Shown piece by piece: positions 1,811 to 26,379 of a DNA stretch of 64,000 bases; position 1 is the stretch's first letter; each line of letters begins with the position of its first letter. Under the pieces are notes generated by a model. The model had not been told where the DNA came from and did not search any database. It saw nothing but the letters and a program-made list of their open reading frames with translations. The stretch is from Marsupella aquatica. Lineage: Eukaryota > Plantae > Marchantiophyta. Made by a program: the position numbers and the translations under genes. The stretch is taken from NCBI GenBank assembly GCA_973895155.1, contig OZ316893.1, forward strand, positions 22,355,844-22,419,843. Reading direction: 5' to 3'.

Positions 1811-4315
1811 ATACAACATAAATGTTGTGAGCTGTAAACGCTCTGCTGAGCCTATGAGACGCTCTCCAGATGCCCCAGTGAGTCTATCATCCTCGTAGTC
1901 AGCTCGTACCGCCTCATCTATCCATCCCCTAGGAGCACTAGGATCTAGTGTGGCAACTATGCTTGTACAGTAAAACATACTCTCTGCTCCAAGATGACGC
2001 TCCGCAATGCTACCTTCCACCCTAGCGCGATTAAAGACATATGACTTCATCACCCCCATATAACGCTCTACCCAATACATCCATCAACAATGTACTGGGC
2101 CTGCAATTGCAACCTCGCGCACTAAATGTATGAGGAAATGAACCTGACCATCAAAGAATGAGGGAGGGAGTGCCTTCTCCAACTTGCAGACAACCTCTAC
2201 TCCAAATATCTCCATAGCAGCAATGTCATCCTCCTGTACCTCCTTTTGACATACCCATCTTAAGAGCTTACCCAATGATCAAAGGGCATCACGAAGTTCC
2301 TCACTACCCAATCCAATAATAGCAACTGGAAGAACATGTTCAAGCAACCGATGATAATCATGTGTCTTCAAGAAAGATGGCCATTTTGGAGAATCCTCCC
2401 CCCCAAATGCCTTCCGAAGATTGGTACCATAACCTGTGGGAAACCTCATCAACCCAATACGTCTGCGAAACTCAATGCGCTCTGCCCTTGTCAAAACCCA
2501 AGGAGGATGGATGCTAGGGGGAGCACCAGGGGGGTCCAAAGATGGCCAAAAACCCAAAAGACCATGCATCCCCATCTCCTCACAACTTTCTCTCCAATTG
2601 TTATTTTTCTCCCCATATAGATGGCGAATCAATGATTTCCCCACATTCCCCTCAATGTGCATAGGGTCTAACAAGTGATTAATGGGCATATCTGACCAAT
2701 ATGGCAATTGTGACAATGCAGACAAACGGGTCATGCCACATCTGAATAATGGTAATGGATCACTCGGATCCTGAACTCTCCCCCATACCTCTCTCCAATA
2801 TGCTGGATCCTTCCGTTGAGGTTGAGGACAAATATCAGGTTGGCCCTCATCAGTATCATAAAGGAATGGATCACTCCTCCAAGGATGGTCTAGTGGAAGA
2901 TATTTAGTATGACCAATGTAAACAATTTTTTGCAGAGTACTTGACTTGGGCCTGGCCACCCCCTCCAAATCGGGTCCACATGTAGAGCAAGCTCGATAGC
3001 CTGATGTTTGCAATCCAGAAACATATCCAAACCCTGCCCAGTGCATAGAAAACACATTCATAAAATAAGGTTCATCAAGGCAAAAATCTGCATAATTGCA
3101 ATTAAATACAAGGTTTAGGTACTAGAGGAAATAAGGGTTTACCATAGCTGGTAAATCATGCATGGTCCACATAAGGATGGCCTTTAGAGTAAATACGCGG
3201 GATAAACCTCCTGTGTTGTGACGTCCATCATAACAATCCACTCCTCTCCACAGTTGTATCAACTCATCAATCAATGGCTGCAAGTACACATCAATCTTTT
3301 TAACTTGCTTAGGACCCGGAATAATCATGGAGAGTAGTAGGTGACCTTTCTTCATGGCCATCCAAGGAGGGATGTTGTAGTTTGTCAACACTACTGGCCA
3401 CACCGAATATGGTTTGGCTTTTTCTGTCAATACAAAAGGGCTGATACCGTCTGCTGCCAAGCCTAGTCGAACATGTCGTGGGTCAATTTTGAACTCTCCC
3501 CATCTATCCTCTACAAATTGATTGGCAGGAGAGTCAACCATCATCCGCATGGCACTAGAGGGTACAGCCATATCAGAACAATTTTGTGAGTGCCATACCA
3601 TCATCTCAGCCAACTCTGCACATCGGAATTGATGTCGCAATCGAGGGATAAGAGGAAAGTACCTCATAACCTTTTGCGGTACCTTCCCCGTCAACATGTC
3701 ATCACGGTACCGTGGCTTCTGACATTTAGGACATGTAGTGGCATTTTCATGCTCACCCCTAAAAAGAATGCAATCATCCACACATGCATGTATCACCTCA
3801 TACTTCAGGCCAATGGACCTCAACACCTGTTTAGCCTCTTTCCAAGAGGCTGGCAATGCATTGCCTACTGGCAAAATACGATCATGCAAGGTACGGAAAA
3901 CATCATCCAAAAGTAGATTGCTTGCCCCATGTCTTTGCTACAAGTTGAGCAACAACATTATTGATGAGAGCCGAGATAACCTACTCCCCTCGAATATGCG
4001 AGTACGGGCATGACGTTGCGCCTCCTCCCATTGCTTGTCTTGAGACCCCCTAGAAGGATGTGGATGACTAGTCCTTTCATGGGTTGAACCAATGTCCTCC
4101 AAACCAATGTCATCGTGATCATCATAGAATTGGTCCATGAGCTCATCCATGGCCCTCTCCTCATCAAGATGGTCTTGGATAGGATCATCACCATCATGTC
4201 GTACCCCATCCTCTTGCCTTTGCAGTTTATGCCCACGGTTGGCCACCATGGCCTCAACAAGGTGTTGTCGCATAGCTCGTGATATTACCCCAATATCAGG
4301 CGTTACATATTGATT
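1811..4315 (-). pseudogene. CACTA TnpD transposase (Transposase_21 and DUF4218-type regions), with stops, truncated by the LTR at 1810
   Basis: Motifs HACVDDCILF, YFPLIPRL, RHVRLGLAADG, YSVWPVVLTNYNIPPW, IDVYLQPLIDEL, LDPMHIEGN, LKTHDYH, PPSFFD...HL...GPV...WMYWVERYMG. Stops at 3938, 2279 and 2084; intron at about 3035-3150. Confidence 0.95.
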
Positions 4316-4439
4316 CTATCATACAACATCAATTAATTAATCTCATCAACACATGCACTGTTGAACAACATCATTCTCATGTAAACATGTAAAATAAACT
4401 GACATATATATATATACAATATGTAAGTCCAAGAAACTA

Positions 4440-7400
4440 TCATGGACGACAACGCAAGGACAATTTTGGTGCATCCCACTCATACTCACACAATAACTCC
4501 TCACCAGCTCTAATGGTCCTAACAGCTACTGTCATGATATGGTCGTTGTGGACTAGCTCAAAATAGGGTATGTAAGAAACTCATCATTTTTTTTTGCTTT
4601 TTGTACAAGGATAGTAAGAAATACATTTTAGCATTAGTAAAGTACTTAGGGTTTGCAACCCTAAGTCACTAAGGAAAGATAGTAGGGAATCATGGAAGGG
4701 AAAAATATGTTGTTCTAAGAAGATGTAAAGGGATAAGTGAGGTCTTTATGGTAGGGCAGCAAATATTCTTTCCTTAGTTAGGATAGGCAACTAAGTCTGG
4801 ACCGGAAAATGACCCAACACCTGACATCTCATTTTTGGCTAATATTGGGTGCGGGGAGGTCCCTAGGGAACCCTGAAAAATTATGAAGTGAAGTAGGGTC
4901 TCAACCTAGGAATTGTGAGTATTTTGGCTGAACTTAAAATAACCATCTAGCGGGTCCCGGAGAAATTCGCCAAGGGGTAGATATTTTTGGTTCGACGTTA
5001 AAATTGGGTATAGTATAGCCCATAATATCCCTTGAAAGTCTAAGAAGTAGTTTATCAACTTTGGTTAGTTTTTGGGAGCACCTCAAAGATTGGGAAAAGT
5101 AATGCAACCTATAGATATGGGCAAACTTAGGTATATTTAGAAAAGTCAGTGCAGGGTATTTAGTGCGTTTGACAAATTCAGGAGGGAGTCCTATGTCCAA
5201 GGATCCCATAACTATGCTCAGAAGTTCTTTTAGACCTATGGGTGATTTTTGACATGGCTTTAAAAAGGGCTAGTACAAAGTTTTCTCCCGCGAGAGAACC
5301 AAATTTTTTCGAAGTGTGGAAATACGACGACGCGGCTGCGACGAGGCTAGCACGAGGCAGGAAGGAGTCTAAGCACGAGGGCGGCTGCGAGTTGAGTGAT
5401 TAGACTATAAAATCACATGGTGGAAAATCTATGGTGGGCTATTGTTGCTCCAGCACGAGATCGGCTAACTTAGGCAATGTGAAATTGATGCAGCAGCTAT
5501 CTAGTAAACGTGATCTCTGCCTGGATGCTGACAAATTGAGAAAGGGCAGGCACTACATAGGCTATAGAGCTTGTTGCCAAGGAAAACGTGGATGCTGCTG
5601 GCTGATTCACTCTACTGGCTGATTCACTCTACTGGTTGATTCAATGTGCTAGCTGATTCAATCTGCGGGTAGGTAAGCTTGTGCTGAGTAAATTCAAAAG
5701 AGAATGGTTGGCAATTGAGAATCCATGTGCTGAGAATTGACCAGCTGCTGCAATTTACAGCAGTTGTGAGCTATGGCTACTCCTGAGAAAATCAATCACA
5801 ATCCAGCCCAACAATTAGAAGGGACTCAGTCATAAATCAGAGGAGAAGCTACTGCAAAAATCAGTCAAGCAATTAGTCAAGGAATCATCCTCAAATCAGC
5901 TGCACAATCAGGCACGATGCTAAGCTCTATAGCTTCTGGAAAGACTGGACCTTATGAGGAACTCTCTCAGGTCGACACCTGGTATACACATAAGTGTAAA
6001 CCGGGACCTATGACAGTGTAATTCGGAGCCCTTTTGCACATAAGGGATTGAGAGAGGGAAAATGCCATAACTTGAGCTAGGGGCATCCGTTGGGGCCCAT
6101 ATTTTTTGTGCCGATTCAAGGGAAGGTAAAGCATCGTTGAGTGAAGGTAGAAACCCAGGAAAAGAAATATCCAGAGATATTTTAAACCGTCGCCATGGGG
6201 GTCCCGCTAGCTTGCAAACGGGAGCTGCCAAGGGGGAATGAATACCAGATGTAGGGCCAAACACTTTGGGTACCCATACCACTTTAGTAAGGCTCTAGGG
6301 AAGGGTACTTACCTTTGGTCGAAGGTGCAAGGCCATCAAGTTAATAGAAGTGAGTATAGAGGGTAGTTTGCTTAGGGTAGTATAAGGGGTACAAGTCAAA
6401 TAAGGCCAACTTTGACTAGGCATAACTTTGGACTCAAGTACTCTTTTTGCGAGCTTTCAAGTGCGTTGGAAAGCTGATGAAGAGGACCATAAGTGGAAGC
6501 AGGTTTGGAGGTCAAAGCATGCAACTCATGTGTGGCATATTCCAGGGCTTGGAAGGAGTCAAGCAATAGGTTGTAGAGTGAGCTATGAACTATAGTTTGG
6601 ACTTGGTGTGTTAGGAGGACTTGGGGGAGGTATAGTTGGACCCCAGGTCAAGCTTGGTGTGGTGTGAAAGGAGAATAGTATATAAGGTGGAAGATTTTAT
6701 TTGTTGAGGACCAGAAGTCTCATTCTTAAGTGTAAGCTCTACCTTGCAAGTTGGGGCTAAGATTGAGAAGGGGAAGGAGGTCCATGCTTAGTGTGGAGAG
6801 TGTGTAGTGACCTTTTATGTAAGGATTGAGTATACAATAAAAGGATTCTTCCAATCTTCATTGTGACCACTAAGTGTGACTAAATATGAAGTGTTTGAGA
6901 GCAAGAGAAGAGTCCATGCTAGGATGCAATCTTGGTCTAATCGTGAAGGGGATGTGCTGGTACACAACCAAGGCCAGGGAGACAAGGTTAAGGTGGAGCA
7001 CTACTTTGGGGTTTAGAGAGGATTGTATCTTGATGGTGGAAAGTACCTTGCTTTGTGTGAGAACCAAGAGGAAGAGTTCTTTGCAAGAAGAGTTTTTCTA
7101 GAGCTCAAGGGGGTGTGTGGACCCAAACCAAGGCCAGGGGGGCAAGGTTAAGGGGTAACACTACCTTGAGGATCTTGAGGGGACTTAAGCTTGAAAAGAA
7201 AAGTACTTGGGGTTCTTGGGTGTTTGTTTTAGGGTCTACTCTAAGGTGACAGCTTGGAGTGGATATCCCCCTTGCTAATCCTTGGAGTAGAGGAGAGAGA
7301 AAGAGTGGGAGTGCAAAAGTAGTCAAGGTGACTACCTCTCTAGAAGTGGAGAGTTGAAACTACTTGTGTAGGGTGTACTTAGACCTTGCATGCACATTTC

Positions 7401-8767
7401 AGAAGTTTTGTCAATCCTTTGTGACCCTGGTATGACATGGAGCAAGTATTAGGTAGTTTTTTAGGGGAAAAGATGCTTAAGCTCCTTGACAAGTGTTTGA
7501 CATAGAGTTGACAGTCGTCCATATGTTTCACAAAATATGGATGTCTAGGTGGACCAAACATTTGAATCCACTCTACATTAGCCTCCAAACCTCTATCTCT
7601 ACCTGTGGTACTATTGATGTACCCTGCTAAATTACCGTTCCGAATAGGGTCACCATCAATCATTCGGCAATGCCATGGCCTAGTGAAGACCTCATCCGGG
7701 TCTGAGTCCATCCTCAATGCATACACCCCCCACCTTGGATGTTGACGCAACAAAATATTCCAACTCTTGGAGTTATATACAGCCCCAATGTAAGGAAAGA
7801 GGTGCTCTCCATCATAACCACGTCTCCATGGCTTTGGAGGGACCACAATATCCTCCAAAGCAAAAAGACCATATCCTATATCAGGACCAATAGAGGATGC
7901 CTTCACTATCCAAGGGCGACCCCATATCTGAACTGGTTCATCTGTAGGAATAAAATCTGGAAATTTGAAGAGACTTGAAGAAAAGTCCTTCAAAACTTTG
8001 GCAGCCCTACCAGTGAGATAGGATAGTCCAAATCTGCCCTCAACGCAAATATAATCTACATTACCGGCTGGTCGATCACTAGTACCTAACACCTCCTCTC
8101 GTCTGTCTACCTGGTCCAGTGGTCCATACTGCCGTCTACGTCTACCAGATCATGGTCGTGTACGTAGGACCCTAGTAGTCACAACCTCGGGCCGAGAGAC
8201 CGGTTCCCCCTCTACATGCTCATGTGTGGGCATGGGAGTGGGGATAGGAGCAGGTGGGCTAAGAGGCATCTAGGCAGGAGGAACTGCAAGCAACTCCCTG
8301 GCCCTTGCTAGAAACCCTTCCAACCACACAGCTTCAGGAACCAAAGGAGGTGGGGGCCTACGAGGCACCTATTTCAACACACGTACAATGGTTTTACACA
8401 AATCAATAAATTAAGTAGTGCCAGGATGTAAATGCAAGATAATTAAGCAATACCCTAAATTGGAATGCATACATGGAATGAATAGGGGACATAAACATAT
8501 CTGTACCTGGCTAGGCAAATACCCTGGCATATCACCCTTGTGGCGGCCATAGTTCTCGATGTGCTCACAAGTCTCCCACGCATGTCGAACCACAAGTCCC
8601 TTACATCTCACACACCAGCAAGGTATGGGTCCTAGTGGAGCACGAGGACAATTTGGAGGAGGGGGTGGAGGAACCTCCCCCTCAGACGAGCTTGTGTCTG
8701 AGTCTGAATCTGACGTGGAACTATCAGAAGTAGACATCTGCATGCATGAAGTACACTCTGAATTCAT
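4440..8767 (-). pseudogene. Zn-finger / Pro-rich / SET-domain gene of element A, split by a solo LTR
   Basis: Exon 1 8767-8507 (CWCVRC...H), GT-AG intron 8506-8369, exon 2 8368-7514 joined in frame to 4541-4440 after removing the LTR and one TSD. Motifs GYGLFA, PYIG, IDG, GNLAGYINS, ANVEW, RTIRAGEELLCEY. Two premature stops in the linker. Confidence 0.85.
4547..7513. mobile_element. Solo LTR, 2967 bp
   Basis: TGTGGACT...AGTTGACA termini; 5-bp TSD GTCGT at 4542-4546 and 7514-7518; no retroelement coding domains; internal short repeats (GCTGATTCACTCTACTG at ~5600-5660). Confidence 0.9.
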
Positions 8768-9517
8768 GTAAGCTGCATAAAAGAAGACAAGTGTTGGATT
8801 ATCAAAATAGAATTAATTAATGCATGAGATACAAAAGTCCTGTTGTACCTCAATGATACCTGCGCTTTGCCAGCCTACTGTGTCGTATTTTCTACACACA
8901 AGGTGTGGGACATCCAAAATCTTTGCATATATGGGTGAGCATTTTGCTAATGAGCATACATAATCTGTAAGTGCAAAAGAGTGTAGGAAGAACACACCAC
9001 ATATAAAAAAATTCCAACATACAAATTAAGTGTAAATGATGCGGCTCGTGAAGCGGGGACATCATACCTCCTGGATGCGCGGTTTCACACTATGCATAGT
9101 GCATTGTCCAAAACAAAACCTATCTACCCCCTCACAAATATTGAACCACCCCTCCAAACGCAAGGTACTGTGCATCAAATCCAACACAACCATTAGCCTA
9201 GCTAATATATGGAGGTTGAACCTTATCCTAAGAAAAGGTGTAACCTTATCCTAGTAAAACCCCATAACCCTAAGCCCATAAACCCCTCCAAAGAAATGAT
9301 CCAAATAGCTTTCACCAAGAAATGGTTCGTACAAAAACTTCTTGTAGTATTTTGTCTATCATATATCATAGTATTGAGTTCCCATCACCACAACCATCCC
9401 TAAACTTGCAAGGAACTTGCAAGAGGACATCATACCTCCTGGATGCACAGTTTCATGCATAGTGCATTGTCCAAAATCAAAACCTCCCTACCCCCTCAAA
9501 AAAAGTTAACCACCCCT

Positions 9518-10279
9518 TGTGATGCCTAGACAGGAATCACTCGGCCAGTTAAGTGGGTAAAGCAGGAAGGCACCCTAGGAACACCTTAGTATAGGGACAA
9601 AACAAGGAAAATATAAACAATTAGGGGCAACCATGGAACCCAGGCCGAGGCCGGAGGTAAGGACGCTGAGGTGAAAACTCGATTAGGGTTAGGGTGCGTT
9701 AAGCATCGGCGGCTAGGAAGGATCAACGGGAAGAAGGACCGGCAGAGGAGAGGGGTAAGGAGCGCTTGCAGGAGATGGTGGCTCATTTGCGAGCACGAAC
9801 TAGGCAGACGACTACGGGAGGCCAACTACTGTCAGCTGCTTAGGCAAGCACTCGGGGAGAGAGTAGATACCGACGATCGACCTAAGGAGGGTATGAGCAA
9901 CGTCAATCAAGCGGCACATTTCTGGGGATGCCTGTTCGAACGGGCAACTGAGTACATCAAGACTTACGAGGACGAGGAATCAGAAAGGGCAGCTCGAGAA
10001 CGGCAGGAGCTCGCTCGATTGTGGGAGCTGCAGAAGACGGCTTTCTTAGGAGGCGAACTCATCAAGGACGAGTTCCTGTGGACGCCTACTTCCAATCAAC
10101 TTGACGATCTTCTGTTTTGCAAAGACAGCGTTGTCGGCATCCGAGAGGCCATCAAGAACTGCAACGACATACACTGGGAATTAAAGGGTAGCACGGAAAG
10201 GTGGACCCAGGCAACGGTGCTAGGAGAAACCTCCACGGCAGCAGAGATGAAGAGGAAGGGAGCCATGGGACGCACCACA
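9518..10279 (+). repeat. 5' LTR
   Basis: TGTGATGC...GCACCACA; differs from the 3' LTR by about 13 transitions and 1 indel (counted by eye). Confidence 0.95.
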
Positions 10280-10283
10280 TTTT

Positions 10284-10300
10284 TGGCGCTAGATGGAGGG
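10284..10300 (+). promoter_or_regulatory. Primer-binding site, probably tRNA-Asn
   Basis: TGGCGCTAGATGGAGGG, 4 bp after the LTR; matches the complement of the plant tRNA-Asn(GTT) 3' end (TGGCGCTAGAAGGAGGG, from memory) with 1 mismatch. Confidence 0.7.
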
Positions 10301-10348
10301 GGCATTTCTTAAGCCGTGAGATATGAAGTTAGAACGGAAGCGTAGGTA

Positions 10349-13243
10349 ATGACTGACCTTACGCCGAGGGAAGAAAGAGTGATTCAATGGGAGAGAGCTC
10401 GACTGCAGCAGCTCGCCAGGTGGCATGATACACAACGACTGAGAGGGGCAGAAAGAGCTGGTAGCTCCGAAACTGGAAGTGGCGTCGAAGAAGACATACC
10501 AGAAGAAGAGTCGGTAAGGAGAAGTGAGTCTCCAACCGACATGGGGGAACCAAAGGCACGGCCAGACGAGAGGCCAGGGACCAGACTGAGCCAGCGGTCG
10601 TGCATACATTACAAGGCATTTCATGGGAGAGGAGATGAGGATCCGGACGAATAGTTGGATGATTTCGAGGGAACCGCTGCAGCAAATGGAGAATCGGCCA
10701 TCAAGATGCAGATTCTTCCCGGCCTGTTCAAGGGTGAGGCTAGGCCTTGGTACAGAGCATTAGATGTGGAAGATCAAGCCATCTGGGATATCTTCAAAAC
10801 ACTCTTTGTTAAGGAGTTTTGACCCATTGGAACTTCAGAACTAGCAGTGCTGAAGTTGGGACGACTTCGGTTCAACGAGAACAAATCCTTCAGGAAGTTC
10901 TTGCAACGCTTTCAGAAACTGGTAAGACGTACAAAGACCAATGCATCTGAAGGTATGCAACTTCAATGGTTGGTGAATGCTTTGCCACAGAAGATGAGTT
11001 TTGCAATTAGGAAGGAGAACCCGGAGACTTTAGCCAATGCAATTAAGGATATTCAATTATACATTAATGCAGATATCACAAGCCGGAAGAAACAGCTTAA
11101 GTCTGAGAGTTCCTCATCGGAGGAGGGATCACCCCATAAGAAAAAAGATAAGAAGAAGAAACATTCTAAGAAGTCAAGAAGTGATAACTCAAGCTCAGAT
11201 AGTGGAAGTAGCAAGAGTGAGTCATCTTCTAGTTCTGAAGAAGAAAAAACTAGGAAAAGGAAGGGCAGAAGGAGAGGGAGAAGGAGAGGAGAAGGAGAAG
11301 TATGGTGTGCCTTATGTTATAAAACCGGACACCATAAAGATGCGTGTCCTAAGCTTAATACTAATCATGTTCGGCATGTGGCCGAGATCAGACCATGTCA
11401 GGGAGAAGTAGAGTACTTTTTAGGAGATGCCGCTGATAGTGTTTTCGGCATCAGTGAGACTGGAGCACGAGACCTATCCAACAGACCTGCATCTCTATGG
11501 TCAGGGTTAAGGAACAATCCAGGAGAGATGTATCCTCGGATTATTCAGAACCCGTCAGTACCTCCTAGGCCGAATGTGCAAAGATTTGCGGCATGCTATA
11601 ATTGTGGTCAACCTGGCCATTTTGCTAGAGAATGCCCGAATGCACGCAAACAGGGTGATGGACAACCAACTCAGCTATGTATGGGATGCCGACAGGAAGG
11701 TCATATGCTAGGGCAATGTCCTACTTGGTTGGCAGGCCTGGCCGCAAATCATAAACTTTTGCCGGTCAAGATCTTACCGCCAGGTACTACCCCCGGAGGA
11801 GTTCAAATCAACCACATCAAACTAGGATGGCAAGAGGATGCCGAGGCAGAGTTCGTACCATCTGATGATGAGGCCGAAGCCCTATCAACCTTCTCAGAAG
11901 AGGATTTAGATCATGATTGCTACCGGGTCTCTACTCGATCTACCAGAAGGAAGGAAAGGTGGGATGGGCTGGCCAAAAATAAAGGGAAGGTTACGGAGGA
12001 AAAGATCAACTCTTCGTCAACATCAACGGAAGGAGAAGGGAGGGCTCCGGCAATACAGGTAAGCCATGAGCCCACCAGTGAACCCAATCCTTCACAAGAT
12101 AGCGACTTCAATCGAGATCATCCTAAGTTGTTCTACCCCTCTGTTACGGCTAGTGTTAAGGAACAACTAAGAGAATTAGAAACCCTGGAGAATACCGAAG
12201 CCATTGCCAAGGATGTAAAACGAGCAAAAGCATTGTTTGCTTCGGAGGACCCAACAGCTGTGGAGACTAGCGTGGCAAAACTGGCCGAATCCAAGACGGA
12301 GACACCACCAGAGGAGAAGCCGATTGTTCCCTATGACCTGGCTAAAGATGTACTAGAATCTAGAGTCTCAGCAACAGTAGGTCAACTATTGAAAAATAGC
12401 CCGTACTTCCGGAAGCAATTAAGGAAGGCTATTCTCGGCAAGCCGAGATTACCCAAGGTAGCAACCAGATCCGACGTACTAATGATAGAAGAAGATCAAG
12501 GAGCCCCAGCATTACCATTAATGATTCAAGGAGAATTATTACTACGGGTACCCATCGATGGAGGATCAGGGGTATGTATTATGATTGATTCAACAGCAAA
12601 AGGGTGGGGTCTAACACCGGAGATGACTAGAAGAGTGTTGAACATGGCCAATGGATATCAGGTCATTCCCACGGGAGTGTTAACCGGCATCAAGACAGAG
12701 ATAGGAGGTATCTTCTTTAGCATTAACTATGTAGTAATGAAGCCGGTAAATCCTACGTCATTCCGGCTATTGATTGGTAGGCCATGGCTGTACCTAGCCG
12801 AGGTAATAGAAGATTGGGATAAAAAGCAGTTCACTTTTGGGACCCCCTCTATCACGGTATCCTGGGACACTAAGGATGACCGTAGGAAAAGCATAAGGGA
12901 AGTAGATGGGTACGACAGTGGACTGGAGTCAGCCGATGAAGTACGTTGGTTAGAATGCCTCACTGACCTAACCGAAGAAAGTGTCTTTGGACCAGAGGTA
13001 CCCCCCAGCGGATTATGGCAAGAACCAATGGAAGGTGACTTGGAAGAAGAAGACGAAGAGGTCGATGACTGCTTTACAATAGAATCCACCTTTTTAGCTG
13101 CAATTCCGGAGGAAGTAAAGGATGTAGACCAATTGGATGAAATGGCTAAGGGGGGAGCAGTAGCAGGGACAGTGGATTTTCTGCAGGCGTTGTGGCAGAG
13201 CCAGCAGGGTTCACAATGCCATCGATCATCGGCAAGGAATTAA
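10349..13243 (+). pseudogene. gag: gag-protease
   Basis: In-frame stops at 10652 and ~10820. Three CCHC knuckles (CALCYKTGHHKDAC, CYNCGQPGHFAREC, CMGCRQEGHMLGQC); protease IDGGS...LLIGRPWL. Confidence 0.9.
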
Positions 13244-16200
13244 ATACCAAGGGATCGGCATACAAGCCGATTACGAGGGCAGAACAAATTGAGGCCCTAT
13301 TAGAAGCCGGGAGAGCACAGCGGCCTGACTCTCAGGAGCAAGAGGTGGATGAGATGGACAGACACAATCCAGAGCCAAGGCAGGAAGGGGAGCCGACCAC
13401 CAATTCAAAACCGAATAGACCGGCAAGGGGACAATCTATGGACACCAAGGAAGGGACCGACTCGGCTAGTCCAGCCAAGATTCCAGTTTATGGAGGTATG
13501 AGATTGGAGCCTAGACTGGAAGCCAAACTGGACCCGAATTTGAAGAAGCAGATTAATATGATCCAAGCACGGCAATATCGGAAGCTCGACTTAGGAGAGG
13601 GAAGAGAACTGAACTTAGGGAGAAACCTAGCACCTGAGCTCGAGAAAGAGATCAGTGACTTATTGATTGAATTTCAGGATGTGTTTGCATGGAGTCACCA
13701 AGATCTAAAGGGAGTAGATCCAACACTAGGGGAACATCGAATTGATCTCATGTTAGGAGCCAAATCATTTCGACAACCAATTCGAAGGATGAACCCGAAG
13801 TATTCCCTGCTGGTCAAAACGGAAATCGACAAACTAGTGGAAGCTGGATTCATCACTCCAGTCCTGCATTCAGACTGGGTGTCTCCAATTGTGATAGTTC
13901 CCAAGAAAGCTGGACCCGATGGTAAACCCAAGATCCGGGTTTGTCAGGATTACAGGAAGCTGAATGAAGCAACATTAAAAGACCATTTTCCTTTACCGTT
14001 TACTGATATGGTACTAGACATGGTAGCCAGTCATGAACTATATTCATTCATGGATGGGTACTCTGGTTATAACCAAATCAGGATTCGGCAGGAAGACCAA
14101 ATCAAGACGGCCTTCATCACGGAATGGGGGATCTATGTCTTCAATCGTATGTCGTTTGGACTCTGCAACGCACCAGCTATGTTTCAATGATTAATGGTGA
14201 ACATTTTTCATGATTACTTGAGAAAGTTCATGGAAATCTTCATTGATGACTTTGCAGTATTCGGGAAGGCATCGAAACATGCTAAATACCTCAGGAAAAC
14301 CTTCATGAGATGTAGAGAGGTGGGTCTCAAGTTACACCCAGATAAATGTTTCTTTGCAGTAACCGAGGGGGTGCTACTAGGTCACAAGGTATCAAGGAAG
14401 GGCATTGAGATTGACAAAGGTAAGCTAGCAGTATGGCTAGATATCATGCAACCTAAGAACATAAAGGATGTAAGATCCTTCTTGGGATGCATTGGTTACT
14501 ATCGCCAGTTCATCAAGGATTTTGCCAAGCTAGCTTTACCATTAACTAACATGCTCAAGGCAGGAGCAGACTTCGAACCCACACCCGAACGAGTCACAGC
14601 GGTGGTAGAATTGAAGCAGATGTTAGTAGAGGCCCCAGTCATGATAGCACCAGACTGGAACAAAGATTTTCATGTTTTTGTAGATGTCTCGGGCTTCTGT
14701 ATCGGCTCAGTACTAAGTCAGTTGGATGAGAAAGGAAGGGACCATCCCATATACTTCGCAAGCCGTCAGCTTGCCGATGCCGAACGGAACTACTCCACCA
14801 CAGAGAGAGAAGCATTAGGAGTCATTTATTCTTGTAAAAAGTTTAGGCATTATTTACTAGGGTACAAGGTAATCTTTCATACCGATCATGAAAGTTTGAA
14901 GTACCTAGTCAATAAGCCGGACCTTACAGGCAGAGTAGCAAGATGGATTTTGCTATTACAGGAGTTTGACTATGAGCTGAGGGTCAAGCCGGGAAAGTTA
15001 CACGCCAATGCCGACTTCTTTTCAAGGATCACAGGTGAACCTGCCACGGATTGCATTGATGATTGATTCCCCGACGAGGAGCTATTCGTTGTGGAAATAG
15101 CTGATACATGGTACCCTGAGATTTTACAATTTCTCAGCACTTCCAGATTATAGCCAGGATTAAGCCGAGAGCAAGCCGCAGTCTTTGTGCGGAAGGTCAG
15201 ACATTATCAGTGCATTAAAGGCATACTGCACAAGCATGGAATCAACGGCACGATTCAAAGGTGTTTGGAAAAGGGAGAGGTAAAACGAGTCCTACGGGCC
15301 ATGCATGGAGAGGAGGCCGGAGGACATTTTGCCCCAGTAACCACGTCTAAGAAGATATTAAATGTCGATTACTGGTGGCCCACCTTGCACAAGGATGTCT
15401 ATCAGTTTATCAAACAATGCGATCCTTGTCAACGAGCGGGAGGACCAAGGGCGTCCACCAGACATCCACTGCACCCTATTCTACCTCTGGCACCATTCGA
15501 GAAGTGGGGTATTGATTACATTGGACCTCTGAAACCACTGACCCACCCTCGACGGAACAAGTACATAATCCTGGCTACGGATTATGCAACTAAATGGGTA
15601 GAGGCCAGACCAACAACGAAGGATGATGCAATTACTACAGCTAGATTCATGTATGAGCAGATCTTCACCAGGTATGGAGCACCCCTAGAATTAGTTAGTG
15701 ATAGAGGAACCCATTTTTTGAATGATATAATTAGTCGTTTAAATGAGCAGTATTTAGTTAAACATAGGCCTACTACTCCCTACCATCCAAAGGCAAATGG
15801 GTTGACAGAACGAGCAAACAGAATTATAGGAAAGATATTGAACAAGGCAGTAGCTCAGAACAAACTCGATTGGGATGATAAATTGTTTGCTGCTGTTTTT
15901 GCTTACAATCTTGCCTATAAATCCACTACCGGTCATACACCCTTCTTCTTAACCTTTGGACAAGAAGCCCTGGTACCCATGCAACTTGAGATACTGACAT
16001 TTCAAGTTACAATTGAGGAAAGAGCCTCAGCGGAGGAGAGCCTAAAGGAGCGAGAATATAGGTTAGAAGCTTTAGAGGAGGCGAGAATGATTTCAGCCGA
16101 GAGAGTAGAATATAGAAAGAATATCATGAAGCAGCAGTATGATAAAAAGTTGAAAGTAGTTAGTATTCACACCGGTGATCTTGTGCTACTTTATGACAGT

Positions 16201-16419
16201 AGGTATAGTAGGTTTCCAGGAAAGCTTTTCACTCGCTGGTTAGGACCCTTTAGAGTAACCATGATGTTCCCCAATGGCTCCGTACAATTGGCCAACATTA
16301 CGGGAGAGGTATATCCAGTTCGCATCCATTATGACCGCCTCAAGAAATACTATATGGACGAAGATGAAGTTGTTCGCGAGGACGCTTCACAATTAAGTGG
16401 GGAGCTATGTGATGCCTAG
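13192..16419 (+). pseudogene. pol: pol: RT, RNase H, integrase
   Basis: DYRKLN, MDGYSGY, FGLCNAP, FIDDF; RNase H DVSG...EREAL...TDH; integrase H-H-C-C, WGIDY, SDRG, NGLTER, GPF. Stops at 14188, 15064 and ~15150. Confidence 0.95.
16391..16407 (+). promoter_or_regulatory. Polypurine tract
   Basis: AATTAAGTGGGGAGCTA directly before the 3' LTR; a near-identical tract occurs in the second gypsy element. Confidence 0.75.
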
Positions 16420-17170
16420 ACAGGAATCACTCGGCCAGTTAAGTGGGTAAAGCAGGAAGGCACCCTAGGAACACCTTAGTATAGGGACAAAACAAGGAAA
16501 ACATAAACAATTAGGGGCAACCATGGAACCCGGGCCGAGGCCGGAGGTAAGGATGCTGAGGGTGAAAACTCGATTAGGGTTAGGGCGCGTTAAGCGTCGG
16601 CAGCTAGGAAGGATCAACGGGAAGAAGGACCGGCAGAGGAGAGGGGTAAGGAGCGCTTGCAGGAGATGGTGGCTCATTTGCGAGCACAAACTAGGCAGAC
16701 GACTACGGGAGGCCAACTACTGTCAGCTGCTTAGGCAAGCACTCGGGGAGAGAGTAGATACCGACGATCGACCTAAGGAGGGTATGAGCAACGTCAATCA
16801 AGCGGCACATTTCTGGGGATGCCTGTTCGAACGGGCAACTGAGTACATCAAGACTTACGAGGACGAGGAATCAGAAAGGGCAGCTCGAGAATGGCAGGAG
16901 CTCGCTCGATTGTGGGAGCTGCAGAAGACGGCTTTCTTAGGAGGCGAACTCATCAAGGACGAGTTCCTGTGGACGCCTACTTCCAATCAACTCGACAATC
17001 TTCTGTTTTGCAAAGACAGCATCGTCGGCATCCGAGAGGCCATCAAGAACTGCAACGACATACACTGGGAATTAAAGGGTAGCACGGAAAGGTGGACCCA
17101 GGCAACGGTGCTAGGAGAAACCTCCACGGCAACAGAGATGAAGAGGAAGGGAGCCATGGGACGCACCACA
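16408..17170 (+). repeat. 3' LTR, containing an open frame from 16523 to the LTR end
   Basis: Direct repeat of 9518-10279. Confidence 0.95.
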
Positions 17171-20100
17171 CCCCTCCAAAAGCAAGGTACTACACATCAA
17201 ATCCAAACACAAAGATTAGCCTAATGAAGGGGTTTAATATTATCCTAACAAAAGGTATAATGTTCTACTAATAAAACCTCTACATACACCCATAATCCCC
17301 TATAAAGAAATGAAACAAAAGGCTTTCACCCGAAATGGTTCATACAAAAACTTCTTGTAGTATTTTCTTGATCCTATATTACATATCATAGTATTGAGTT
17401 CCCATCACCACAACGTAACCACCCCTAAAACACCAAGACTCTATACACAATTGCATCATTCATTAATTAGAGCCCAATATATTAAGCATGCAAGACCATA
17501 GCTTATCAAAAAAATTACATAGTCCGGTACAAACCCCAAAATTTGTTCTCCGCAACAAAGAAACTTGCAAGAGGTCCCTCTACATGCATGACACGTTCAC
17601 TGTCCCGTTCACATATGTAGAGCCCTACAAAACGCGGATTCAAATATGAAAGCAAATAATAACTCCAACCATGTGCCCTTACCCCATACAAAACCTAAAT
17701 ATCCTAAATTATACTCTAAACCCTCCAATCCCATACCCAACCCAAATTCAAAACATTATATTGGACCCCCTTTGGGAAAGCCAAGAGGTATCCGATATAA
17801 CTTCATGAGGGGTCCGATGCAATAGGAAACGGGCCACACTTGGTAAATACACGGCCACAAGAAAAGGACGAGGGGTCTGAAGCAGATAGTTTTGGAAAGT
17901 CTGATTGCGTGTCCGATACCTTTGGTTTCGCAAAGTTCGAAACAAAAAGAATCGGAAGCAGCAGGTTTTGTTTCAGAAAAAAGAACCGATGCAGGTGCGA
18001 AGACCCGCGCGTCGGGCCCCGTTTCGCACTTGGTGTTTTTCAAATTTTTTGAAGCTGGATCAAGGAGGAGAGCTTGAAGGAGGAGGAGAGATGGAGGGGG
18101 GCGGGGGATCAGGTGGTGGTGGAGAGCAAAGGGGACCGTCCCAGCCATACAATGAAGTTATGAGGGACATTTTTGTGGCCAAGGCAGGGCTGAGTGTGGA
18201 GGACGCAGAGAGAGTAGTCCCACTCCTCCAAACGCTGATTGATGCCTCTTGGCGTGAGGCAGAGAAGACTGCTGCTGCAAGCATTGCAAGTGAGAAGGAG
18301 GCAAAGAAGAGGAAGAAAGAGGCAAAGAGAGGCAAGGGGGATGTAGAGGAGACACTGTCTCCAAGAAAACAAGAGAAAAAGCTTCGAAAAGAAGCTAGGG
18401 CAATTGAGAAGGTGCGATTGGAGGAGCAGAGGCAAAAGGAGGCAGAGAGAGCTCTCAGGCCTGAGCTAGCTCTCAATTCGGGTGGTGGTCCATTGCCTAA
18501 GAGCTACCATCTATTCCGAAGCCAATTCAAGCAGGTGCTGAGGGCCAATTTGGGGCCATTGGATTACTGGGGCAAGAAGAAGGAGGAAGAGAGATTGAGA
18601 ATCAGAGAGCAGGTGAAGGAACGGTTCAGGAACGGGGCCTACATTGATGACAGGTTCCTAAACAAATGAATTTCAGCATCACTCTCAGACATGCGCAATC
18701 ATCAGCGAGAGAAATTCAGAAAGTACCTTGGAGATATGGCAGTGGATGCAGAGGTGATCAGGGAGGAGGGTTGTCCAGACGATGTTTCCCCGGATGAGTG
18801 GGCGGCTTGGCTTGAGGAGGAACTCTCAGTCCGTGCCTGGCTGAAAAGAAGACATTGGGACAACGAAATTAGGCTGGCAGAGGAGAAGCGAAAGGCTGGG
18901 GAGAATGTTGATATCCTCCCCCTTCAACAGAACCTGCAACAATGGGCAGCTCAGGCAGCAAGACTCCCCAAACCACCAAGATCACTATATTCATTAAAAC
19001 TGAAATTATAAAGGATATAGGGAAATTTGGCGATTTAAAAACATAGTTTTAGGCATGAAAATTGTAAATTTGGAAGATGAAAAATGAAAATTCAAGCATC
19101 ATTAAATGTAAATTTCGGGACAAAAAAATGAAATTTTGGGAAAGTAAAATATTAAATTGGATGATATTAAAAAACATTTGGGTGATAAAAGTGTTCATTT
19201 GGTTGGAAAATAGATAGAATCTAGTAATAACATATAAGCTTGGATAGCATCTATATTCAAAACATTTAGCTTGAGTAAGATATCTAACTAAGCACCAATA
19301 CAATGGAATGACTATAGTGTCTAGACAAAGTTAACTAGGATGATATCCAACCTACTAGAAGGAATGAAATGGCATCATTTTCTAGAATTAAAATATACTA
19401 AGACAAATAAAATAATAATTATAAGAAAGTCCATTCAATAGCTTTGAGAGATCATAGAGTATTAATTTGATTGTCTTGTTCTCTCACTTTAGACAAACGC
19501 ATGGAAATCAACTCGACCCTCTTAATCACAAGTCATTTGAGTGGAGACTTGTAACCTACGAGTTCTATCAATCTACTCATCAATTATACCTTCCATGTAA
19601 ATTTTGAGAGTTTTCAAAACATTCTTAGGAATTGTCAAACCTCTATCCATAATATTTTGTTCTTTAGCACCTGACTTAAACCCATACATTGCAGAATTTG
19701 CAAACTGCCAACTTTGAGTAACATTGTCAAACCCAGGATCCAGCTCCCAAGTCTTAGTGGTTTGAAAGCAACGTTCATATCGAACATCATCCTTTGCATC
19801 ATGCTTACCATGTTTAGGCCTCCACCATTGTACTTGGAACATAGGAGCATTCCTAAGAGGAATGCTCTCAACAGACGTTGAAGAAGACCCTTCAATATGT
19901 TGCAAATCTGTTGAGGGAACCTCATGGTTTGGATCCACACCACCCAAAGCTCGAACCAACCAGAAACGCCCTTTGCCATTTTCCTGTTCCCATTCATCCT
20001 CTGGACGTAAAAATACAAAGTGACCTTCTTGAATATCTTGTAGAGGAATCCAACGTGCAGGTTCTCGCTCTTATCGTGCACCAACAAAGGGTGCAGCTTG

Positions 20101-21642
20101 ATCTTCCATCTCTTCCATGTACTCATTTTGAAGGTCCATCATCTCTGGATTTTGAGAAGGTTCACACAAGGAAGTTTTGGTGCTCACCTAGGTAGGCAAA
20201 CACTAAGTAACCAGGGAAAATACAAGATAGAAGATAATTTTGCCGAGTTTCATGTTGGTGTAACCTGGTACCTACCTGAAGGTAGGGATATGCAAACAAC
20301 CAAAATGGGACTATTGTGGCGATTCCTAAAATACCGATGTATACAAAGTGGATAGCTGGTAGTTCATAGATTCACCACCATAGCATGGATGTCCAGAAAT
20401 TCACAAATGTGCAAGAATTGGGTTAATGTAGGACAATGGAAAACTCCAATGATAAGTTTGGAGTTAAATTTTCAAATAATTTAAGCCAATTTCTTATCGG
20501 TAACCTAACCTAACACAAGGACACTACACCTTATGAACTTCTTCGTTCCACTGCTGATGTTCATAGACCAGCTCCTGTTCAGTAGGTGGTCGAGTGCTTC
20601 TTTTGCTTGGGATTTGCTTCGACATTTTGCTGGCATCAGAGTGCTGGTTACATTCTAGATTGCACTATGCTTCAATCACCGTTGATGCTGGTGCTACGTG
20701 GTCTACTCGCTTGCTCAGCATAATCATTTTCTTGTTCACGTTTTTGGACCTTATCCTCCATAGCCCGCAGGCTCCATGCGCTCCGTCCTTTGCTCTCATG
20801 CGCTCCGTCGCTACTCTCGATGTCAGAGCCAATGTCTGCTCGACACATCAAGAAATGAAGAAAACTAACTGTCTTGGCGACCATGATCGTGACCATAACG
20901 ACAAGCTTGCGGTTACCTCGATCCCTGCCTGAGGATCCGATCCAATGTCTGCTCGACACGCCAAAGAGATGACGAAACACAAACTGATCGACTAGCCAAG
21001 AGCTCATCAGGACCCGACTCGAGACTTCCATTTGCGCCACTCTCTGTTTGAATTCAAACTTTGAATTCGTCGTCCTCTCTATTTAAGACGATCGATACTC
21101 TCCTGTGGATTCATTCTGCTCTCTCTCGCATTGGAATTGCATTTCAGGATTCTCGAGCTCCTTGCAATTTTACAGTTCACCTATCTTCTTAGCGTTCAGC
21201 TCGATCAAGACTCAATCGTTGAGAGCCTGTATCTCGTCGTTGATGTTCGTGGCGAATTGAGCTCAATTCGTTGTGGGTGTCAGTTCTTCGTAGATATTTT
21301 GGGCGAATTGCGAGGAGATTCAGAGGAGGAATTGTTACTTGCTCCGAGGAGATGGCACCCAAGGATGTAGCAGTCGCAGCGACTGAAGGCGCTACGGGAG
21401 CGAAGAAGGGTCGAGGCATGCCGAAGGCTGTGAAGAGGCATCCCGCATTGAAGGAGGTCGGTGGAGCAGATGTAGTGGGATCGAAGAAGAAGCACAGAGT
21501 TTGTTTAGTGAATATAATAATTATGCAACAAAGGATTAATACAGCTCTTACTATGAACTACGTGAGTCCAACTAACATAATAAATTACCTGATCATAACC
21601 TGCCTTTGGCTAAGCACTAGAATAATCAGATTGCCAATCATG

Positions 21643-24600
21643 TCAAAGTGTCCATTGCAAAGGAATTCCTCTACTCATTTTTAGGACTTCCATTCCTGTC
21701 TCTAGTCTTCCTATGTCGAGAAAGGGAATCACAATGTTTTTGCTTACGGTAGCTTCCCAAATTTCACACCCTTCTCTCACCCGCTTATTTAGCCAACTCA
21801 CATGGACATTGATGGAATTCTGTGTTCCTTCATCCAGAGTTGCGTCAACAAAGCTTTCTTCTTCAGGTTCATCTTGGAGTGTATTTTCCATAGAGTCAAC
21901 ATCCATAGCTTCGGCAAGAGATGAACCTCCTTCAGTCCGGCCCTGTGCTAGATCTTCAACACTCCTTACAACCGCCAGTCTCAGCCTTCCATGTACACGA
22001 ACCTCCACCACATCATGTATTTTGGGGTAAGTAGGGCATGTATGAAGGCCATATGTTTCTATATGTTGACGCTGACTTCTGTCTTGAAGTTCCAGGCATA
22101 CAATCTCAGAGGAACCTCTTCCTGCTTGTCGACTAATGGGCATAAATTTATGCAATAAACGAGAAACTGGTCGAAAACTGGTATCACCATAGTGTTCGGC
22201 CGTGGCTCCAAGCAATGGCAAACCTGAGAGCTTGTCAGTTATCATCTGATTATCAAGTGATCTTTGTATACTGAACCACTTGGCCTCAAAAAATAACTCC
22301 TGGTGTCCCAGAAATTCATGGACAAATAAGTCTAATATGACTGCTCTCCAATTCCAACTGTATTATGGACTGTCCTCGTCATCTGTCAATACTACCACAT
22401 GGTCACCAATCCTGAAAAGAGTGTTCCTCACCACTACAGATTTCAAAGGGATAACTTTAAAATCCATGACAGTCCTAAACAAGGACGTTGCCAGCCCCTG
22501 AAGAGCCCAATGCCATTTGACAAAATTGCTGCCATCCTCAGAAAGTAGACGCTTCTTCGCCTTTGTTCTACCTACTCCTATTCCTCTAGAGAGAATGGAA
22601 ATTGCACAATGAGAATCGACAGCAAATCTACTCATATTTTTAACTAGTGAAAGAGCCTGCTCTTGTGATGAGACTACAACAATACAATTCTCATGCCATT
22701 TAGGGCAGGTAAAGTCACGTTTGTCCCTTGCTGCATGCTCAATTGCTCTGGCTCCTGTTGGCCTCAAACGGTTGTGTGCTTCCAACAGTGTACGATGCTG
22801 TGGCAGAAATCCATCATCATCATTCCAAATCATCATGCATGTTTTAGTAAAAAACTGCCTGACGTGATGGGAGGTGAAAGTTAGCTCCATTTCCTTGTTG
22901 TTGGTGGCAGTCCGTCCATAACCAGAGACCATACGTTCGAACCTGTAGCACCAATACACCCAGTGTGGACCATGTTGTTCGATGTCATCCAACAACTCAC
23001 CGCTACCTACAAGACAAATTACATCTCATTTGTAAGATGAGTGATCGAGGCTAAGCAGTCTGCAGTTGCCTTGAAAAAATAGCATAAAAAATTACATCCT
23101 AAAATATTTCTGTAACAAACCTGCAACGTGTTCGAGTATAGAGGCATTAACTCCAAAATGCTCCTCACTCCTCACCCGCCATGAAGCCAACAGACTTCTT
23201 GCCTTCTCCAAAGTTGACTTCCTCCACCCCTCCTCCCTACTTTGAATGTAAAAGAGTCTTCCGATCTCAAATAACAGCATGCCAATTGAACCTAGAGGAT
23301 TTTCAACTCCTAATCTCAAGCTATATAGTATGTGCGGTAGACAAAATATAACAAATCGAGTATATTCTTCAGCTTTGAAGTAACCTAGTCTGTCCCCAGG
23401 ATCTTTCGGCCATCTCCCATCCAGACCTTTAGGTTTTCTGGCAGTCACTTCTGCTAAGGCCTCCTCTAAAACTTTGGTTTGGGAAGGTGTCAAACTTTTC
23501 ATCAATTTTGTTACATAGCTCTTGAATAAGTTGAGCGCAAGTATATGCATGACATCATATACTAAATCAGATATCAAACAGAAACCAAAGGTATCGCTTA
23601 ACCTCCAAGCCTTTGCCAACTGGTTAATTCCATGCTCTTGGGATATGCTTACCCTTGAAACTTCTGTTGTACAAAGAGAGTACCTCTGGGCAGCATCTCT
23701 AATGACCGCCAAATCTCGTTTGGCAGGAGGGTACCGCTGCAAATAACGATTGTTACCATACACAGTAACTCCTTTGGGCCCTCTTCCTGAAGTGTTTGAT
23801 TGTTTTTTCCACGTGCCTTTCACTAGACACCTCCTGCACGGTGCCTTCCCCCTCTGGCACCACCCTCCAAATTTGCATTGGGCCGGGTGGTCTCCTGTAA
23901 ATAACATTAGTCTCACCCTACAAGTACAATCTTTTGAGGTGATAAGGTCATGTATTAGCTCTGGCGCATATGAAAAATGAAGAGGGAATCCGGCAACTGC
24001 CAACATTTGCACGTCTTGGAAAAATGGCTCCATGAAAGCTTCCAAGAAGTGCAATTTAAGCTTGGTGAGTTTTTCAGTAGCACTGTTTGGTATAAACAGA
24101 ATGGGAATAGGTTGTATGTCAGAATGGCTACCCACATTCAGTATACTTATCTCCACTGTCCATGTGCTTCTCATAACTGAAGATGCTGATTGGAAACCAT
24201 CCCAGTGAGCCATTAGTGCAATATTGCGAGGGTCCCCCTGCGTACAATAAGAAAAACAATTTAATTAGCATGAATGATCGAAGTCAGAAGGAATCCAAGA
24301 GAAAAGAATGATTCTCAGATTAGCAAACCATCACAACGACAACGACAACGACATTCAGAGGCCCATTCAGAGGGAAGAAAAACAGTTATTCAGATTAACA
24401 TGCATGTACTGACAGCGCCGCATTCAGAAACGATCAAAGAGAGAGAAACAGGTTTCAATATTCTAAGCATAAGAGCATGTAATATATGGCAGCTGGCTGC
24501 ATTCAGATCGAAGAAAGCAAAGAGTGCAATCTAATTAAACAGGTTTTCAAATAAAATTTATTAGAAGTATCATGGAGATTTTCAGAGGGAAGTAATTGAG

Positions 24601-26023
24601 AGCAGACAAATTCATGGAACATCAACGTACATCATTTGGCTAGTACCTGAACATATACTGGCCTTATTTGGAGCCGATTTCCGCAAGTGCACACAATGTC
24701 ATACATGTGGATGTCTCCCACCAGCTTCAATCCTTGGTTCAAAAGGTCGCATTTCTCTGGGTAGGTAGCATAGCCTTTCCAACAAGTCTGGCATACCACA
24801 GGTAACTCATAGGTGCAACACGGGTCCCAGAAATAGGAGTTTTGTTTGGCTTTCGAGCCATCCCACCATTCGCTAATTACATCGTCTTTGAGACTCCCAA
24901 GCTGGAGCCAACGAGCTCTCTCCCTCCACATGGTTAGTATTTCATGGCAATAGCTTCGTGATCGACACAAATGAGATATCAATGGCGCAATAGGCAGGTA
25001 ATCAAACCTTAACATATCTTTGCGCTTGATTCTACACCCGAAGACATCACATCGCTCGCTGCAGGTTTCACAATCTCTGCACAAAATATTCTTGCATAGA
25101 GAGCACTTACAACTCTTGCTCGTTGTTTTTGCTTGGTCATCCTGGATGCTTGGTCCAAAGGCCTTAGGTTCGTGAAAGTTGTCGTCAGCCCCCAAACACA
25201 GACGCCATTGATGTGGTTGAGGTGCGCCCATCACTTTGTAAGCAGCCGCCAAGCCATTGAAAGTCCCCAAGGAAGGTATTCCTAGTGGACCACCATCCCA
25301 TTGAGTACCAGCATACCTCAGCAGTGAGCCAAGGGGTACATTCCTGTAGTCAATGACTGGACTTGCATCGATTGGTTTGAACAAAGCTCTCAAAATCTTG
25401 TCCTGCAAGTCCATAGAAACTTTAGCAGAATCCAACATGGACTGGAGTCTCCATGTCTCTCTATAAATAGCCTCGCTCAAAGTCAAAGGAATTTCGTTGA
25501 GTACAGCGGTTGAGTAGTCGTTGCATCCAACATTATCAGACAATGGCATAAGAGTTTCTGCACCATCCACCCCATCCTCTGTTGCACACCCAACATCAAA
25601 AGCACAATAGCTTGCTGGGATTGCATCAGGGTCACTTGCATACGTAGACCGAGGGCCATTGACAAAACCAAGCAACGGTCTGAGGAGTAGCGTGCTTTGT
25701 ATTCTCCATTTGGAAGTCCTTGACAGCTTTGCAAAATCAGATGGAAGATCTGATTGTTGACGTGAACAATCTCCAATCACATCAGAGGACTGCCCTTGCA
25801 CTATTCTATCTCTTGGTCTTTGGGTCGACACTGCTGCCTTGTGCAAAGGAGGGTGGACCGGAACATGCCGCGCATCTATGAGAATGCCTTGTTTATCCTT
25901 GAGTCTATGATGACCTCTAGTTCTTTTGCTCACCAAATCAAAGCCGTCAGACATTCGTGAACATCTATACTTGCAATCACATCTGACTTTCAAACTCAAA
26001 TCAAAATCCTCCATGTTGCGCAA
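21643..26023 (-). pseudogene. Divergent EnSpm-type transposase of element C, 3 exons, one stop
   Basis: Exons about 26023-24647, 24237-23121, 23006-21643. Motifs YLPI, WWDGS, RNIALMAHWDGFQ, FTGDHPAQCK, PCRRC, YDVMH, FKAEEY, HGP...WCYRFER. Stop at 22363. Confidence 0.85.
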
Positions 26024-26379
26024 GAGTCGTAGACAAATTTTCGCGACAAAAAAAGAGTAATGGACAAGTCTGGGCTGCCCACTACGTACGTACTAAGTTG
26101 TCAAGGTCTATAGTATACTTCTGATTGAGTCATTCATTAGCTTCACAGGTCCTGATCCTGTGCGGTCCCCGGCCTACCCTTATCGCAGCCCAGAATTGAC
26201 TCACAGCCTGGATGTGCTGGGATTTGGTGCTGGGATTTGGTGCATTGCATTGAAAGCATATTTGAGCACTTGTGGGGCCAGTTAATTGAAAAACAAGCCT
26301 ACGGTAGTACTATACGTGAACCCAGCTTTGGCCTTTGGGCACATGTGGGGCCAGTTTATCAGTTCTTTGGCGGGCCCCT

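Follow-up and report, generated by a model that had tools for sequence, protein, structure and literature searches.

The stretch analysed here, 64,000 nucleotides of the liverwort Marsupella aquatica (assembly GCA_973895155.1, contig OZ316893.1, positions 22,355,844 to 22,419,843; hereafter the window), contains a pile of nested transposons on the minus strand. The outer element, which spans at least positions 19011 to 1812, is a decayed bryophyte CACTA-type transposon in which an exon encoding a SET domain is located between the likely first exon of the transposase (TnpD) and the remainder of the transposase gene. The element is arranged as a divergent gene, a nested Ty3/gypsy element, exon 1, an intron, a split SET exon, a spacer, and TnpD, which is cut by a long terminal repeat (LTR) (Table 1). 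The GC content is 45–53% in the exons and 27–34% in the introns and the spacer.

Table 1. Features of the outer element and of the sequences inserted in it, in window positions. In splice-site sequences a slash marks the exon–intron boundary; UTR, untranslated region.
Feature	Positions	Strand	Remarks
Divergently oriented gene	17905..19011	+	Same element; Lys/Glu-rich, no Pfam family
Ty3/gypsy-type LTR retrotransposon	9518..17170	+	Upstream of exon 1; LTRs 98% alike; CCCCT duplication
Likely 5'-UTR intron	8738..8847	-	33% GC; candidate donor GAG/GTACAA at 8848/8847, candidate acceptor CAG at 8740-8738
Exon 1, coding part	8507..8737	-	Ser/Asp-rich and Pro-rich lead, then zinc motif; phase-0 donor at 8507/8506
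Intron 1	8369..8506	-	138 nt, GT...AG, 33% GC
SET exon, 5' part	7514..8368	-	Amphipathic/Pro-rich lead, pre-SET, GxGxF and AGYINS motifs
Insertion in SET exon	4547..7513		2,967 bp, TG...CA ends, GTCGT duplication (4542-4546, 7514-7518)
SET exon, 3' part	4440..4541	-	HIMTVA...GEELLCEYEW; stop TGA at 4442-4440
Spacer	4316..4439	-	124 nt, 27% GC; SET 3' end and 3' part of the pre-TnpD intron; acceptor AG at 4317-4316
TnpD exon A	3148..4315	-	Opens with NQYVTPDIGVISR; acidic linker; Transposase_21; stop at 3940
TnpD internal intron	3034..3147	-	114 nt, position as in Sphagnum-type loci; begins with CT in the window copy
TnpD exon B	1812..3033	-	Two premature stops; LTR insertion cuts at 1811

The window copy carries premature stops at 8272 and 8152 in the SET part and at 3940, 2281, and about 2086 in TnpD, and its TnpD internal intron begins with CT where three Sphagnum-type loci (described below) have GT. 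This copy is decayed and is predicted to make neither protein. The 2,967-bp insertion in the SET exon is likely a solo LTR that lies outside the design of the element. It is absent from other copies, since an empty site joining 4541 to 7514 has been found in all four DNA sequencing runs.

A search with 8767–7523 (stops as X) against 1.84 billion representatives gave 98 matches, and the named ones are from Riccia sorocarpa, Calypogeia fissa, and Sphagnum species. Of the annotated exon 1 sequences, the closest belongs to Calypogeia, and the best long TnpD match is a Riccia model with SET and Transposase_21. No relatives were found in the viral contigs searched, and a search for look-alike stretches by place gave none. 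In addition, 60 metagenome loci with exon 1, referred to here as the Sphagnum-type loci, have been fetched; 8 of them reach TnpD, 11 the end of SET, and 20 the 5' boundary of the element. All eight that reach TnpD show exon 1/GT, an intron of ~120 nt, AG/SET, a stop, an AT-rich spacer, and CATAG/AAT, the last being in phase 0, in the TnpD frame, and directly after an in-frame stop. The exon 1 end GTG/GTA, the ~120-nt intron, and the phase-0 acceptor are present in 44 of the 45 loci where the exon end is complete. In 10 of 11 loci the SET stop directly follows HY(E/G)W-x; the remaining locus has a 2-nt deletion. The spacer is 136–146 nt long (seven measured) compared with 124 nt in the window. 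TnpD of the window and of the Sphagnum-type loci is about 46–50% identical over 250–340 residues, and the intron position is common to both.

The transposase core matches Transposase_21 (PF02992, E 3e-39) and has 317 relatives over 682 aa. A CACTA 5' terminus is present in the family, as all 20 boundary-reaching Sphagnum-type loci begin with CACTACAA and have 18 distinct flanks. The Sphagnum-type terminus has no match in the window. At 19319 on the minus strand, CACTATAG is found at a plausible distance and is a candidate for the terminus of the window copy, whose 3' end is missing beyond the LTR at 1811. In locus L049, no 3' inverted repeat occurs within 7 kb downstream, and none of the loci has both ends. 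The divergent gene has a counterpart in this Sphagnum-type element (L049 4259–6076, minus strand), and tblastx of L049 5294–5782 against window 18298–18786 gives 28% over 107 aa and 47% over 34 aa. Its first open reading frame (ORF) has no meaningful Pfam match; the gene may be a TnpA-like accessory gene.

An earlier reading of the sequence alone had identified a zinc-finger exon beginning at 8767 and ending in a phase-0 donor at 8507/8506. On the minus strand, 8767–8507 (261 nt, phase 0) encodes CWCVRC-x13-H-IENYG, and the donor reads CAG/GTACAG. The phase, the motif, and the donor end are correct, while the start at 8767 is disfavoured. We prefer a start at 8737 (CAG/ATG) because the relatives begin with MSS or MTS at this position and because a diverged copy cannot be aligned with the window across 8744–8845. 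In the DNA runs this diverged copy shows a joint from 8743 to 8846, near the candidate 5'-UTR intron. As the same reading stated, the TnpD exon is without an N-terminal zinc motif of its own; in a six-frame scan of the whole window, C.C..C-x13-H-x4-G occurs only once, at 8620.

The spacing CxCxxC-x13-H-h-x3-G is kept in all 30 matching exon 1 relatives (113 scanned, many near-identical), and the x13 spacing is found in 84 of the 87 matching seed-plant TnpD proteins (119 scanned, spacings of 9–18 allowed). Profile–profile comparison of exon 1 with the seed-plant TnpD N-terminus gives a probability of 81–95%, although in one such comparison a single pattern served to select the two sets, which makes it partly circular. 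The later profile and PF13963 comparisons were made without selecting the seed-plant side. On an unselected profile made of the first 95 residues of 118 long seed-plant TnpD matches, 20 exon 1 fragments score 2.6–13.8 bits and the reversed fragments −4.0 to 1.4. For 1000 shuffles the 99th percentile is 3.1 and the maximum 8.6, which are exceeded by 19 and 9 of the 20 fragments, respectively. PF13963, the transposase-associated domain, matches 5 of 20 exon 1 relatives (best E 0.002), but the match that had been anticipated for the exon 1 of the window did not appear at E ≤ 10. Based on the motif spacing, the profile scores, and the PF13963 matches in relatives, exon 1 most likely represents a shortened form of the first domain of the transposase itself, probably a truncated transposase-associated zinc domain.

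The predicted acceptor AATAG/GTG at 8369/8368 opens the SET frame in phase 0, in agreement with the sequence-only reading. The C-terminus of SET (4541–4443) and its stop TGA, followed by TAG, were not part of that reading and are located directly before the spacer. This 3' part matches positions 84–104 of PF00856 with an E value of 0.0073 (below the curated cut-off), and PF00856 is found in 37 of 40 relatives. Among these 40, the GxG motif is kept in 39, the Asn in 35, the Glu in 38, and the final Tyr in 35. The predicted structure of one relative, P0130 (not the window copy), has a pLDDT of 86 and a Foldseek E of 1e-7 to SET8, with a VIA Z of 12.3 and a root-mean-square deviation of 2.6 over 124. 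Since this model resembles SET8, MLL1, ATXR5, EZH2, and Set1 about equally (Z 11–12), the substrate cannot be named. The SET product is likely a protein-methylating enzyme. One Sphagnum SET cluster has 360 members. When proteins of 495–2000 aa were searched by word index with the SET part, none of 267 candidates scored. The proteins P0207, P0214, P0216, and P0217 are more distant SET relatives without the exon 1 lead, and their hosts may indicate where the captured SET came from. In P0135 (423 aa, on a 2,141-nt contig), exon 1 and SET are in a single ORF, which may derive either from a spliced RNA or from a copy that has no intron.

The acceptor GATAG/AAT at 4316/4315, also proposed from the sequence, does open the TnpD frame 42 nt (14 codons) ahead of the ATG at 4273. 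The interval 4445–4270 holds seven AGs, three of them in phase 0, and only the one at 4317–4316 then leads into an open frame. A phase-0 AG alone is weak evidence for an acceptor; this site carries weight because it is conserved across subfamilies. Host-family variation has been taken from the four DNA runs, and no variant is listed at 4304–4360 among 40 of the 42 variant rows. Diverged host copies align through the start of the TnpD exon and 12–18 bases into the spacer (to 4327–4333), and then differ. In two further host subfamilies, read by hand from loose ends, AG is again present at 4317–4316 and is followed by N-A-F-V-Q-P or G-R-F-V-E-P, where the window has N-Q-Y-V-T-P.

The codons ahead of the ATG (4303–4274) show I/V, I/L, and third-position changes, as well as G/E, S/P, P/S, and T/K, and no gap is listed among the variants at 4200–4330. 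A P-x4-5-R-(R) motif, recognized by eye, opens the TnpD exon in six subfamilies. Its Pro lies a whole number of codons from the acceptor (five in the window, three in Sphagnum, two in L016) and precedes the first Met in the window and in Sphagnum. This Met is residue 15 in the window and residue 8 in Sphagnum, and none is present within the first 45 residues in one Riccia subfamily. Since the pre-ATG codons vary like coding sequence and the position of the Met varies, translation likely covers the TnpD exon from its very first base, and the exon would then require a phase-0 partner upstream.

The same evidence bears on a different arrangement in which SET and TnpD share a two-gene message or TnpD has a separate transcript. 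The spacer would be spliced from a donor 22–23 nt past the SET stop, or TnpD would begin near there, and the transposase would start at ATG 4273 without a zinc domain. No variant of this ATG is listed in the DNA runs. A T/GTA is found 22 nt past the SET stop in the window and 21–22 nt past it in 7 of 10 Sphagnum-type loci (noticed post hoc), with CAT/GTA at 23 nt in two host subfamilies, and a donor here would leave an intron of ordinary length. TGTA may equally be a polyadenylation element. In that role the site is compatible with skipping of SET as the route to TnpD; as a weak donor, which would make SET a cassette exon, it is compatible both with skipping and with a two-gene message. In Arabidopsis, EN/SPM families alternate between alternative splicing and split genes (PMC13547354). 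On the other hand, the pre-ATG codons retain both reading frame and type of residue, as a UTR would have no need to do, the first Met is not the same across subfamilies, and TnpD would lose a domain carried by 87 of 119 seed-plant relatives. We consider the two-gene or separate-transcript arrangement improbable.

Instead, exon 1 is probably spliced either to SET or, by skipping the SET exon, to TnpD. Joining exon 1 to the SET exon would give a zinc-finger SET protein ending at the stop at 4442, while joining it to 4315 would give a TnpD of the usual layout, as found in seed plants. The SET isoform would end by polyadenylation in the spacer, or would continue, as an untranslated tail, through a weak donor lying 22–23 nt beyond the stop. 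This agrees in outline with the sequence-only reading, which had proposed SET and transposase isoforms that share one exon. The acceptors, the homology of exon 1, and the models joining exon 1 to SET favour that proposal, but a direct exon 1–TnpD join is present in none of 170 proteins. In 25 Sphagnum and Calypogeia gene models, exon 1 is joined to SET in frame, and the Calypogeia model P0170 has the junction Q/VPRRP exactly as predicted in the window; these models are predictions, but many and concordant. With a rough splice matrix, the exon 1 donor scores 2.39 compared with 1.35 for the best phase-0 GT of the SET exon in the window, and 3.84–5.19 compared with at most 3.19 in 7 of 7 loci. 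By the same matrix, the window and the Sphagnum-type loci share no phase-0 donor upstream of the TnpD acceptor other than that of exon 1.

A donor inside the SET exon, joined to the acceptor at 4315, would give one fused protein with the zinc domain, SET, and TnpD. Such fusions exist as gene models, i.e., Riccia KAL3684834.1 (P0004, SET and Transposase_21), P0193, P0262, P0228, and P0170, and four further Riccia models (P0155, P0178, P0208, and P0240) have donors within three codons of one another near the SET end. In the five proteins that match both zinc and TnpD, as in five further Riccia models assessed by eye, SET-exon sequence lies in between and the donors are scattered. This scatter extends over the SET exon even within one subfamily, and most fused models lose the final SET motif. 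The host copies, like 10 of 11 loci, keep the SET stop, and the rough matrix finds no SET-exon phase-0 donor common to the window and the Sphagnum-type loci. A fused protein is quite unlikely. Plain read-through from SET to TnpD has been rejected because the spacer has stops in the TnpD frame; the window also has a double stop, and the T/GTA is not in phase 0.

It is also conceivable, though very unlikely, that only SET uses exon 1 at present and that TnpD is a relic, its acceptor being inherited rather than maintained by use. All copies examined are decayed or partial, and among the best 120 of 317 long matches no bryophyte TnpD has an N-terminal zinc motif without SET in between. Against a relic stand the identity of TnpD to the Sphagnum-type loci with their common intron position, and the many family copies with CACTA ends at different sites, which would need a working transposase.

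Several observations weigh against alternative splicing of a shared exon. The splicing is predicted from DNA and gene models, and the decisive 8507 to 4315 junction has no counterpart among the models. All annotated models that were read join exon 1 to SET, and none of the 170 classified proteins leads from exon 1 directly to TnpD (the SET profile used for this classification includes some exon 1 columns, and only the rows with zinc and TnpD matches were used). This count is weakened by the preference of gene predictors for the nearest acceptor and by the inability of metagenome ORF callers to splice. The Riccia, Sphagnum, and Calypogeia models that fuse SET-exon sequence to TnpD, including the four Riccia models with clustered donors, count on the same side, and the donor ranking depends on the rough matrix. 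A Met is found at the same place in Sphagnum and in one Riccia subfamily (M-L/Y-P-R-R), where an internal TnpD start is possible. The exon 1 of the window misses PF13963, and the termini of the element have not been found within the window. Finally, in 37 of 40 relatives the NH motif of SET reads NS, with Ser in place of the usual His, so that SET activity is not assured. Intron-sized skips in the four DNA runs have been rejected as signs of splicing; the contigs run through the introns, and the skips are read as diverged copies.

The maize En/Spm element has a shared first exon, which is non-coding. In maize En/Spm and in Arabidopsis EN/SPM3 and EN/SPM7, TnpD and TnpA are produced from one gene by alternative splicing (PMC13547354; En/Spm splicing is also described in PMC4158355). 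The Marsupella element is likewise a CACTA element with a transposase and an accessory protein predicted to come from one transcription unit. Unlike in En/Spm, the partner is SET rather than TnpA, it is located upstream inside the TnpD gene, and the exon predicted to be shared encodes protein, including the zinc domain of TnpD. According to bioRxiv 10.1101/2025.02.11.637652, red-algal Plavaka elements of the EnSpm lineage carry PAG2, a DNA methylase with SET. Both are thus cases of SET cargo on an EnSpm-superfamily element, but PAG2 is a separate, methylase-fused accessory gene, while here SET is without a methylase and is nested in a plant-type Transposase_21 gene. SET-carrying Helitrons (10.1101/2025.02.11.637652) and the Phytophthora HarbingerS and MuDR elements with SET cargo (PMC12730594) are DNA transposons with a SET gene as well; they belong to other superfamilies and hosts, and no exon shared with the transposase is mentioned in the portions available.

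In seed-plant CACTA TnpD (PF13963, PF02992, PF13960, and PF13952), the Transposase_21 core is 34–45% identical to that described here, and the CxCxxC-x13-H motif is common to both. The zinc domain and the core are often in one ORF in seed plants (813–857 aa, unspliced contigs), whereas here they are separated by the SET exon and the zinc domain ends after H-x4-G. SETMAR, a SET domain fused to a mariner transposase, also places SET beside a DNA transposase. It is a single host gene that has been domesticated, and its two parts are truly fused, unlike the multicopy element with a conserved stop between SET and TnpD. A literature search, with most subscription journals and Repbase outside its range, gave no land-plant CACTA element with SET and no coding exon common to SET and a transposase, and the available text of 10.1101/2024.09.22.614159 has nothing on this arrangement. 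Repbase may already contain bryophyte EnSpm families with SET. SET cargo and En/Spm alternative splicing are known; what is new here is the coding exon that the two proteins would share.

The window contains additional mobile sequences. The Ty3/gypsy element nested in the CACTA element is outside its design. Three LTR copies (1061–1811, 9518–10279, and 16408–17170) are 97.6–98.2% alike and represent two insertions of one young family in opposite orientation. A duplicated block of ~365 bp (9057–9517 and 17169–17414), upstream of exon 1, flanks the gypsy insertion. On the minus strand, an ORF fragment at 19573–20138 with the motifs FWLVRA and VQWWRP and no Pfam match is probably the tail of another transposon gene. 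A second, unrelated multi-exon transposase (21643–26092, minus strand) has a weak Transposase_21 match (E 0.0024), nearly open frames, and introns near 24631–24240 and 23120–23005, and is possibly Plavaka-like. An element at 39822–45363 (minus strand) has a DUF7869 transposase-like ORF (E 5e-45), preceded by an ORF (44302–45363) that seems to contain repeated small beta-barrel units. The long plus-strand ORFs at 48436–54473, the last with a NIF/FCP1-like phosphatase domain (52822–53883, E 3e-16), may be another element with enzyme cargo; the adjoining 54372–54473 resembles the end of the CACTA divergent gene.

Chromatin enzymes carried by transposons are candidates for countering silencing, and in the sources available SET cargo has so far been named in oomycetes and red algae. 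In the mechanism we propose, SET would have been captured into the TnpD gene, where it borrows the first exon of TnpD, and may act as an active lysine methyltransferase that serves the element, possibly against silencing. More tentatively, and on balance doubtfully, the zinc exon would be a splice switch between cutting and chromatin marking, with both products directed to the same partner or DNA and the element writing its own histone marks. Because the family is large and spans mosses and liverworts, many bryophyte "SET domain-containing proteins" are transposon cargo. If the shared-exon splicing is true, the element would have gained an enzyme that needs neither its own promoter nor an added targeting domain, and splicing would control the choice between transposase and methyltransferase.

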